DNA of 64,000 bases from Neodothiora populina (taxonomy: Eukaryota). The DNA lies in assembly GCF_041146345.1 (NCBI RefSeq), contig NW_027191402.1:372001-436000 (forward strand). Reading direction: 5' to 3'. Within the stretch, counting starts at the first letter, position 1; every line of letters begins with the position of its first letter. Of this stretch, positions 38,401-64,000 are shown piece after piece. Under the pieces are notes generated by a model. It worked only from the letters and a program-made list of their open reading frames with translations. It was not told the origin of the DNA and searched no databases. The translations under genes and the position numbers were made by a program.

Positions 38401-38603
38401 CACTATGACTACGTTAACCTACTGCTATATGGGTGGCGTGGCGCTGCTTTCTTGCTGCTGGGGCCACAGAGCAGCTAATCAAGCGGGAGGGAAAAAACAA
38501 GAGACCTACCGAAAGTGTGGCCATTCTTCTTGAAATAATCGAGAAAAGTATCTCGAACTTTGGCAGCGGGCCACTGGAGCTGTTTCTCCGTCAAAGAAGC
38601 CAT
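35475..38603 (-). CDS. ALA1: Alanyl-tRNA synthetase
   Basis: Four exons (introns ~38509-38403, 38256-38167, 35949-35892). [58 protein letters not shown], editing-site NHTGTH and EFCGGTH, and a C-Ala GGKAGGK tail. Confidence 0.98.
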
Positions 38604-38893
38604 GCTGAGAGGTCGTGTTGTGGTTATTGAACGATATGTGAACAATCGTTGGTGCAGGAAAGTTCTAGGCTTCAAGTGGTGATACGGAAATTCGGCGTGA
38701 GTCAATCCACGTCCGCAACTGCTCGCCCACTTAATCTGCATCCACTTTTGCAAGACCAGAGCGAGACCTAGATTATACGCGAAAAGCAGCCTCTCGTCTT
38801 GTATTGTTTTTGATTCTCTATATTTCGGAATAAAATAACTGCCGAGGTCGCGCAAAGTGTTGGATAAGGCGTTTATTGGGATGGTGAGGCAGA

Positions 38894-62276: not shown

Positions 62277-63035
62277 AAGCCAGCAGATGATTGAGCCGAA
62301 GGTGGGCAGGCAAGGTGTCTCGACGCGGCTTTGTCGTCATGATGAACACGATGGACATGATGATGGCTTGGTTGGGCCACACGCAGAGGAGCTGTCAAAC
62401 GGGAGACAAGGAAAGGTGGTTGTAATTGCACTTGGCACAGATGACTGGTCTCATACCGCATAACATCACGGAACAAGCGACGGCGTACGGGGGTTTGACA
62501 GGTACAGTAGGGTAGAGCTCCTTCAGCCTGGAGATGGATTTGCTGCCGGGCTGGACGAAGAGCTGTAGATATCCAATTAACCTTTTTACATGTTTTCTTT
62601 TCTGTTACGACGACAACAACTCCTGTGAGCGCATCAAGTATACAGTAATTCGTAACGACGATGGCGCAATAGCGTGTACCCCTCTCACATGGACATGACA
62701 ACACGAGTCAAAAGTGAGAATGAGTCAAATCGAATATGAGTCAAAACGCAGAATTGCGGGCAGGTCCATAAAATTCAGGGTCCGGGTTTGGAATATTCCA
62801 AGTCTCGCAGTCAAGTGCATGACCCATCTTTATCTTCTTTGCGACCAAGCATTATTCCACCGACGCCACTCTCTACAGGCGTTTGACAAGATCCAATCCC
62901 AAACAGCTTGTCGCATAGAGCAGCGTGACAAGTCTCAAAATTCTGTCGCGAGCGCTTCACAGGAGCGCATCGGTGCTAAGACGATCACCCGGGATACTTG
63001 GCTTTCACCAGCGTCGGCCTCTGACCTCCAGCAAG

Positions 63036-64000
63036 ATGGCGCTTAACGCAGCCTCCCACAACCCTAGTATGTTCGATCCGATGGCATGAGAAGGGGGAGA
63101 AAGAGGAGGATATAGAGAAATGATGGAGGAGTTGTGCAGAGCTGGGCTGACCGGTACTCATCTGCAGCGGGCGAGAAGACCGGCCCTGTCACCGGACAAG
63201 CACCCCCAGTGTCGTCTGAAGCAGCACAAGACATCCTCGCCGCCTCCGAGAAGGATCCCAAGGGCACTAATGTGCCTGGCCAAGCCGGCGGAGAAGGCAG
63301 TGAGGCCCCGAAGAAGGCCAAGAGCGAGAAAGAGCGTACGTCAACCTATCCGCTTCGAACAGTCATACGCTGGGCACCACCTCGAACGCAGCGCCATCGC
63401 TTGCTTGATGCTCGGCGCTGGTCAGATCTAGAGCTCTGACTGACATTGAACCCTTCACAGTGGCAAAGGAACGTGCCAAAGCCGAGAAAGCCGCCAAATT
63501 CGCCGCCAAGCAGGCAAAGCAACAGGGCAGCGCTGCCGCCGCTTCAACCAAGACCAAGGAGAAGAAGCCCAAGGAGAAGGAGGAGGTCTTGCCCCCATAC
63601 GCTGAAGAGACGCCCCCAGGAGAGAAGAAGAGTAAGATTGGCACTTGTGGAGCGGAGATGCTTGGACTGATCACTCCTTACAGTTCTCAAACCTTTGGAC
63701 GATGCCTACCACAAGGCCTACATTCCCTCCGTCGTCGAGTCCGCCTGGTACGACTGGTGGGAGAAGGAGAAGTTCCACGAGCCCGAGTTTGACGCGGATG
63801 GCAACGTCAAGGCCAAGGGTTACTTTGTCATCTCCGAGCCTCCACCAAACGTTACTGGCGCCCTTCACTGCGGTCACGCTCTCGCCACATCTCTCCAGGA
63901 CACCCTCATCCGCTGGAATCGCATGAGAGGCTTGACCACTCTTTATCTGCCTGGATGCGATCACGCTGGTATTTCCACACAGAGCGTCGTGGAGAACATG
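63036..64000 (+). CDS. VAS1: Valyl-tRNA synthetase (5' part, runs off window)
   Basis: Exons 63036-63066, 63168-63335, 63461-63631, 63684->64000. Lys-rich appended domain, [22 protein letters not shown]-type [15 protein letters not shown], and [15 protein letters not shown]. Confidence 0.95.

Follow-up and report, generated by a model that had tools for sequence, protein, structure and literature searches.

A conserved near-cognate codon as the likely start of the mitochondrial ValRS form in Neodothiora populina

The only full ValRS gene found in the genome of Neodothiora populina probably yields its mitochondrial form from a non-AUG codon, AUU at position 62940, by leaky scanning on one leader; the probability of this reading is, by our estimate, about three in four. 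One transcript would be scanned, and a minority of ribosomes would initiate at AUU 62940, which has A at -3 and would be decoded as Met. The resulting 32-residue Arg-rich presequence would direct ValRS into mitochondria, and the remaining ribosomes would continue scanning to the strong AUG at 63036, from which the cytosolic enzyme would be made. A GC hairpin beginning 13 nt past the AUU would probably slow the 40S subunit over the weak codon, and CUG 62943 or GUG 62925 may contribute to initiation in this species. The reading draws on the sequence of the gene, its single copy within the limits of the genome search, a conserved AUA/AUU codon with A at -3 and a conserved peptide.

The window, that is, the whole stretch of 64,000 nucleotides that was analysed, contains the 5' part of the gene. 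The database gene model P0001 (1093 aa) opens at ATG 63036 and was identified as ValRS by a full-length match to TIGR00422 (valS) of 1011 bits, the curated cut-off being 612. The nearest named protein relatives of P0001 belong to Aureobasidium (84%) and Elsinoe/Myriangium (79-80%), which places the fungus in Dothideomycetidae. The features of the gene and its leader, in window coordinates, are the following:

62721..62727, + strand: TGAGTCA, which we take to be a Gcn4/CpcA-type promoter element
62737..62743, + strand: second TGAGTCA, presumably a site of the same type
62916..62918, + strand: in-frame TAG, the 5' limit of the extension frame
62925..62927, + strand: GTG with A at -3, a possible minor start
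62937..62942, + strand: AAA-ATT, in which ATT (62940-62942) is the proposed non-AUG start codon and the first A lies at -3
62940..63035, + strand: presequence-type extension of 32 codons with 6 Arg and 1 Lys and without Asp or Glu
62943..62945, + strand: CTG, codon 2 of the presequence, a possible tandem back-up start
62952..62968, + strand: predicted 7-bp GC-rich hairpin (62952-62958 pairs with 62962-62968), beginning at +13 counted from the A of ATT
63036..63066, + strand: first coding exon, opening with the ATG of the cytosolic form (A at -3)
63067..63167, + strand: intron 1, GTATGT...CTGAC...CAG, in agreement with model P0001
63168..63335, + strand: exon 2
63461..63631, + strand: exon 3
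63684..64000, + strand: start of exon 4, synthetase domain; the gene runs on to G000:C4:438652

The extension frame before Met 63036 translates as SSVTSLKILSRALHRSASVLRRSPGILGFHQRRPLTSSK, and ATG is absent from 62919-63035. An earlier note on this DNA had proposed a mitochondrial-type presequence in this frame; the positions it gave for TAG 62916-62918, GTG 62925, CTG 62943 and ATG 63036 and the lack of ATG before the latter were confirmed, and translation gave the same composition of 6 Arg, 2 Lys and no Asp or Glu. It had also named GTG 62925 and CTG 62943 as near-cognate codons in good context, and both indeed have A at -3, but it had missed a third such codon, ATT 62940. In total, the frame contains the near-cognates GTG 62925, ATT 62940, CTG 62943, GTG 62973, ATA 62994 and CTG 63021, and A at -3 is confined to the first three of these. 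The arrangement of VAS1 and cyt-20, with an in-frame AUG on either side of the presequence, was not found in the window ValRS. An out-of-frame ATG at 62819 (+ strand) opens a frame extending past the ValRS ATG (62819-63046); it would be an overlapping uORF if transcribed, and therefore transcription probably starts 3' of 62819.

A genome search with P0001 revealed one full ValRS in the N. populina genome (G000) and no separate mitochondrial ValRS gene, a count that is a lower bound, a second LeuRS and a second MetRS being likewise unlisted. The remaining PF00133 loci scored best as IleRS (two loci), LeuRS and MetRS. Since the ValRS gene is single in the genome, within the limits of this search, both compartments must be supplied from it, an argument also made in the available portion of PMC7049704. 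A short ValRS paralog consisting of exons 1-2 only (~75 codons) extends from L128:4628 downward on the - strand (G000:C6:1020127); it has the same intron positions as ValRS, lacks a synthetase domain and has stops 13-14 codons before its ATG. Similar N-terminus-only genes (L037/L074/L122 and L088) precede an MFS-type transporter in two metagenome groups, and such paralogs may represent either a small gene family or repeated partial duplication. The extension was absent from the synthetase-less paralogs with the same N-terminus (G000:C6 and L088).

Metagenome contigs were scanned for the conserved first nine ValRS codons, which gave at least 114 loci. Of these, a script rule retained 47 and inspection by eye another 12, giving 59 ValRS-type loci, several of which have too little downstream DNA to be confirmed as ValRS; the other 55 were dropped as not ValRS-like. 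Together with the window, the kept loci comprised 45 non-redundant 5' ends among the matches listed, and the N-terminus-only paralogs L037 and L088 remain counted in this number. The scan pattern targets the MALN-type N-terminus and therefore yielded no Sordariomycete, Leotiomycete or Aspergillus-type 5' ends. As far as a quick tree shows, the loci with enough coding DNA group with Aureobasidium, Cladosporium (99% to one named protein), Extremus (100%) and Exophiala/Cyphellophora-type Chaetothyriales. The placement of lichen fungi near Toensbergia is less firm (78-86%, with an unresolved fork in the quick tree). The sampled loci are related to one another.

An anchor was defined as an in-frame ATH (AUH) with A at -3 located 18-36 codons upstream of the Met, a rule chosen after the data had been seen. 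Among the matches listed, it occurred in 37 of the 45 5' ends, versus 5 and 4 in the other two frames, while the same in-frame count gave 11/45 for CTG and 7/45 for GTG; in a control window further upstream, anchor-type ATH was found in 9 of 43. The anchor codon is ATA at 27 of the 37 positions listed, ATT at nine and ATC at one. The usage of Ile codons in ValRS coding DNA of the same loci is ATC 383, ATT 207 and ATA 58, and the long exon in the window contains no ATA among 44 Ile codons. Most sampled loci read K/T/N-I-L-S/R-R/K-A-L upstream of the Met. When ATH-Leu/Phe was collected in frame without the -3 filter, A at -3 was present in 37 of the 39 cases listed. Only this first base of the preceding codon is fixed, the encoded residue being K in 23 loci, T in six, N in five, S in two and I in one. 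The cytosolic ATG has a purine at -3 in 36 of the 37 loci listed. In nine of the 37 loci an in-frame stop lies within eight codons upstream of the anchor, the nearest at three codons (L072), so the frame need not reach 5' of the anchor. As judged from these comparisons of DNA, the fixed AUA/AUU and its A at -3 behave as a start codon would and not as an Ile residue, and the likely mitochondrial start in the window is ATT 62940 with a predicted presequence of 32 residues. According to the sequence placements, loci with the anchor span Dothideomycetes and Chaetothyriales and probably also lichen fungi.

The eight 5' ends without an anchor include the two N-terminus-only paralogs (L037 and L088), L038, whose contig ends 72 nt upstream, L053 (ValRS identity unconfirmed) and L111 with an AUG-started extension, L014 with ATA but C at -3, L067 with a possible GTG start, and L110, which is unclear. 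The anchored 5' ends are clean in 34 of 37 cases, the exceptions being L058 with a stop inside the extension and L046 and L070 with an in-frame ATG further up. In L058, AAA-ATA-CTA is kept, an in-frame TGA follows five codons later, and an ATG is present 11 codons before the main Met, which possibly reflects a start switch or an assembly error. The N-termini of the NCBI models P0005 and P0154 start at AUG and include the same motif, and the AUG-started extension of P0116 is a different one; these proteins together with L053 and L111 indicate that switches to AUG occur.

The earlier note had favoured CTG 62943 or GTG 62925 as the start. Initiation mainly at these codons in N. populina, with AUU as a bystander or one of several redundant starts, seems rather unlikely to us. 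Both codons have A at -3, and CUG and GUG are generally stronger near-cognates than others. Tandem near-cognates are known, as in the ACG-AUU of Cryptococcus LeuRS (available portion of PMC7049704). ACC-GTG is located five codons before ATA/ATT in the Cladosporium-like loci L052, L084, L098, L099 and L114, where it is a possible second near-cognate start, and L067 may use GTG. On the contrary, ATA or ATT is present at 36 of 37 homologous positions, while the Leu codon after the anchor is CTG in only nine of 37 loci (CTT in 15, CTC in seven, CTA in three, TTY in three), and a GTG counterpart of 62925 was found in only six of 37, five of them Cladosporium-like. In the nearest relatives, three loci of Aureobasidium type, CTT stands at the position of CTG 62943, and there is no GTG at the position of 62925. 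Conservation upheld the frame and the peptide suggested earlier but neither of the two codons named. The Met start of the database proteins P0059 and P0072 was rejected as support for GTG 62925, the matching DNA (L052, L098 and L099) having the Val codon GTG; most likely, a gene caller had read GTG as Met.

Several properties of the stretch upstream of Met 63036 suggest that it is translated in the ValRS frame. The length of the open frame alone was discarded as evidence, since the frame is open for at least 20 codons in 42 of the 45 5' ends but also in 30 of 45 in each of the other frames. The window and three Aureobasidium-type loci share 11 of 12 residues of the extension peptide. Asp and Glu account for 1 of 890 residues in the extensions versus 19 of 684 just upstream, and in the anchored loci the extensions are 20-32 codons long with 4-7 Arg+Lys each. 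Mismatch rates at codon positions 1, 2 and 3, calculated from 11 disjoint equal-length locus pairs, were 0.15, 0.11 and 0.24 in codons 2-10 of the extension and 0.25, 0.23 and 0.29 in the rest of it. Upstream of the anchor they were 0.36, 0.34 and 0.43 at codons -2 to -8 and reached 0.67-0.70 at codons -9 to -20. The codon changes in codons 2-10 comprised 17 synonymous and 21 non-synonymous ones. The hydrophobic moment of the window peptide (0.70) was not above that of shuffled peptides, 17% of which reach 0.70, and the cleavage-type motif R-x-[FLY]-[STA] was found in only 15 of 36 extensions.

It could be supposed that the stretch is untranslated, either as a relic or as a conserved part of the 5' leader or core promoter, and that ValRS is imported by an internal signal. 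The gradual fading of conservation at the anchor, with 0.34-0.43 mismatches per position in the seven codons upstream, the stop within the extension of L058, and the fact that part of the constraint acts at the RNA level (the GCG and CGC codons described below) are consistent with such an explanation. It is nevertheless quite improbable, because a single reading frame is favoured (37 versus 5 and 4), third-position mismatches are in excess in codons 2-10, differences in length between loci (20-32 codons) preserve the reading frame, and acidic residues are excluded from the extensions. In addition, an N-terminal presequence of ValRS is listed for other fungi in the available portion of PMC7049704 (Table S5).

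An AUG could also be supplied by an upstream exon spliced onto the extension, or the extension could lie inside a leader intron. Upstream ATGs and GTGAGA at 62714 are present in the window, CTGAC occurs at 63021, and the NCBI Cladosporium model P0127 reaches an upstream Met. However, the window contains no consensus splice donor between 62714 and 63067, and CTRAY branch sites are absent between 62281 and 63021. No AG is conserved before the anchor (AAG occurs in eight of 37 loci), and none of 36 loci has a branch site plus YAG within the 60 nt preceding the ATG. This makes splicing, which the earlier note had named as a way to refute its proposal, a highly improbable source of the start codon, and AUU 62940 remains the preferred one.

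Part of the extension may be constrained by an RNA hairpin. Where codon 5 of the extension encodes Ala, it is GCG in 23 of 27 cases, whereas coding DNA has GCG in 152 of 833. Where codon 9 encodes Arg, it is CGC in 22 of 28 cases; the positions of these two codons would form the stem. The mean folding energy of codons 4-11 is -7.06 kcal/mol versus -3.54 kcal/mol for synonymous recodings, and 31 of 36 loci are below the recoding mean, the hairpin window having been chosen after the data were seen and the loci being related. For the hairpin of N. populina the comparison of codons 4-11 with synonymous recodings gave p 0.04. Codons 12-19 showed no folding excess (10 of 36 below the mean of synonymous recodings). 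Predicted pairing is highest at +13 to +16 and +24 to +27, with the start codon itself mostly unpaired. The stem has about -7 to -13 kcal/mol and shifts by 2 nt between clades; it is absent from L043, L078 and L118, and loci without it are found among the Chaetothyriales-type ones. RNAalifold found no consensus structure across loci, and the 111-nt stretch as a whole is no more stably folded than its shuffles (z 0.97). Covariation was weak, the value being 38/500 shuffles for six pairs and 14/500 for a four-pair core picked afterwards. The hairpin begins at +13 from ATT, versus +10 from CTG and +28 from GTG, which argues against the latter two as main starts. PTEN-beta reportedly has an AUU start with a downstream hairpin as well. 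The odds that the ValRS hairpin functions in aiding the start are about even.

Transcription would start 3' of both TGAGTCA sites. Within 40 nt of the window (62705-62743) three GAGTCA-type sites are located. In 16 of 27 related loci TGASTCA occurs at a distance of up to 350 nt on the 5' side of the anchor, versus 1 of 22 in a control window. No link between TGACTC, cpc-1 and tRNA synthetase was found in the literature searched. A broader interpretation, which we consider tentative and on balance doubtful, is that AUA/AUU with A at -3 and the GC hairpin at +13 constitute an old fixed module that already governed how much ValRS goes to mitochondria before the split of Dothideomycetes, Eurotiomycetes and lichen-forming classes. 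[quoted passage not shown] If so, a deeply conserved AUA-started essential isoform would be missing from most gene models of filamentous fungi.

The single AlaRS match of the genome is also located in the window (38741-38601, - strand; Met at 38603). Upstream of this Met, an open frame is present whose end is much like the ValRS extension. An ATG whose context is weak (T at -3) lies in this frame at 38741, and TGACTCA occurs within the stretch; either a dual-AUG arrangement or a near-cognate start could operate here.

Among the best 120 protein matches, 96 begin at the Met of P0001, four are extended, and 20 are fragments or have other starts, and many ValRS models beginning at the cytosolic Met carry the name 'mitochondrial'. 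Many gene models would therefore miss the mitochondrial isoform, and the earlier suggestion of a mitochondrial ValRS that is started at a non-AUG codon and overlooked by gene callers gains support from the single copy, the conservation and the composition of the extension. The ValRS leader, being compact, could also serve as a natural reporter in studies of near-cognate initiation and of downstream hairpins in filamentous fungi.

Mitochondrial synthetases with non-AUG starts are already known, including ALA1, GRS1 and Cryptococcus ArgRS, and ValRS would probably be an added case. According to the available portion of PMC7049704 (Table S5), ValRS is dual-AUG in C. albicans, two Cryptococcus species, N. 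crassa (cyt-20/NCU01965) and S. cerevisiae and cytosolic in S. pombe, and the 12 near-cognate DualNCC rows comprise Ala, Arg, Cys, Gly and Leu but not Val. The same portion reports that Cryptococcus ArgRS starts at AUU and that the near-cognate state often swaps between lineages. The non-AUG starts of ALA1 and GRS1 and the two AUGs of VAS1 are described in the part of PMC6582344 that was available. A non-AUG-started fungal ValRS was not found in the literature searched, which consisted mostly of papers open without subscription, with the supplements of PMC5487733 and PMC6582344 outside the search, and the accessible parts of PMC9604717 and PMC7245112 contain nothing on it. Non-AUG dual targeting would thus be extended to ValRS, which the literature gives as dual-AUG for the fungi it covers, and the retention in several fungal classes of a start as rare as AUA/AUU would be contrary to free swapping with weak AUGs.

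By its sequence, the window ValRS resembles a near-cognate dual-targeted synthetase and probably is one. Like the DualNCC genes (S. cerevisiae ALA1/GRS1 and Cryptococcus ArgRS/LeuRS), it is a single gene with an upstream near-cognate in good context, a basic presequence-type extension and a strong downstream AUG; unlike them, it has an AUA/AUU position, mostly AUA, that is kept across several classes, plus a candidate hairpin. With the dual-AUG ValRS genes (VAS1, cyt-20, Candida albicans and Cryptococcus) it shares the orthologous enzyme, one gene for both compartments and an N-terminal extension, but the known ones start the extension at AUG, while the 34 clean 5' ends lack an in-frame AUG. 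The Pezizomycotina cpc-1 gene represents the same fungal group and also has a deeply conserved near-cognate start (AUU 64/100, AUC/AUA 10) with conserved context (available portion of PMC5487733). However, cpc-1 has uORFs and encodes a transcription factor, and its near-cognate start opens a long regulatory extension, in contrast to the 20-32-residue targeting-type peptide of ValRS. In Kozak's experiment, as reported in the accessible part of PMC2001202, a hairpin at 11-17 nt aids weak or non-AUG starts. The candidate ValRS stem likewise begins about 11-17 nt into the frame, but it is short, its position differs by 2 nt between clades, and some loci lack it.
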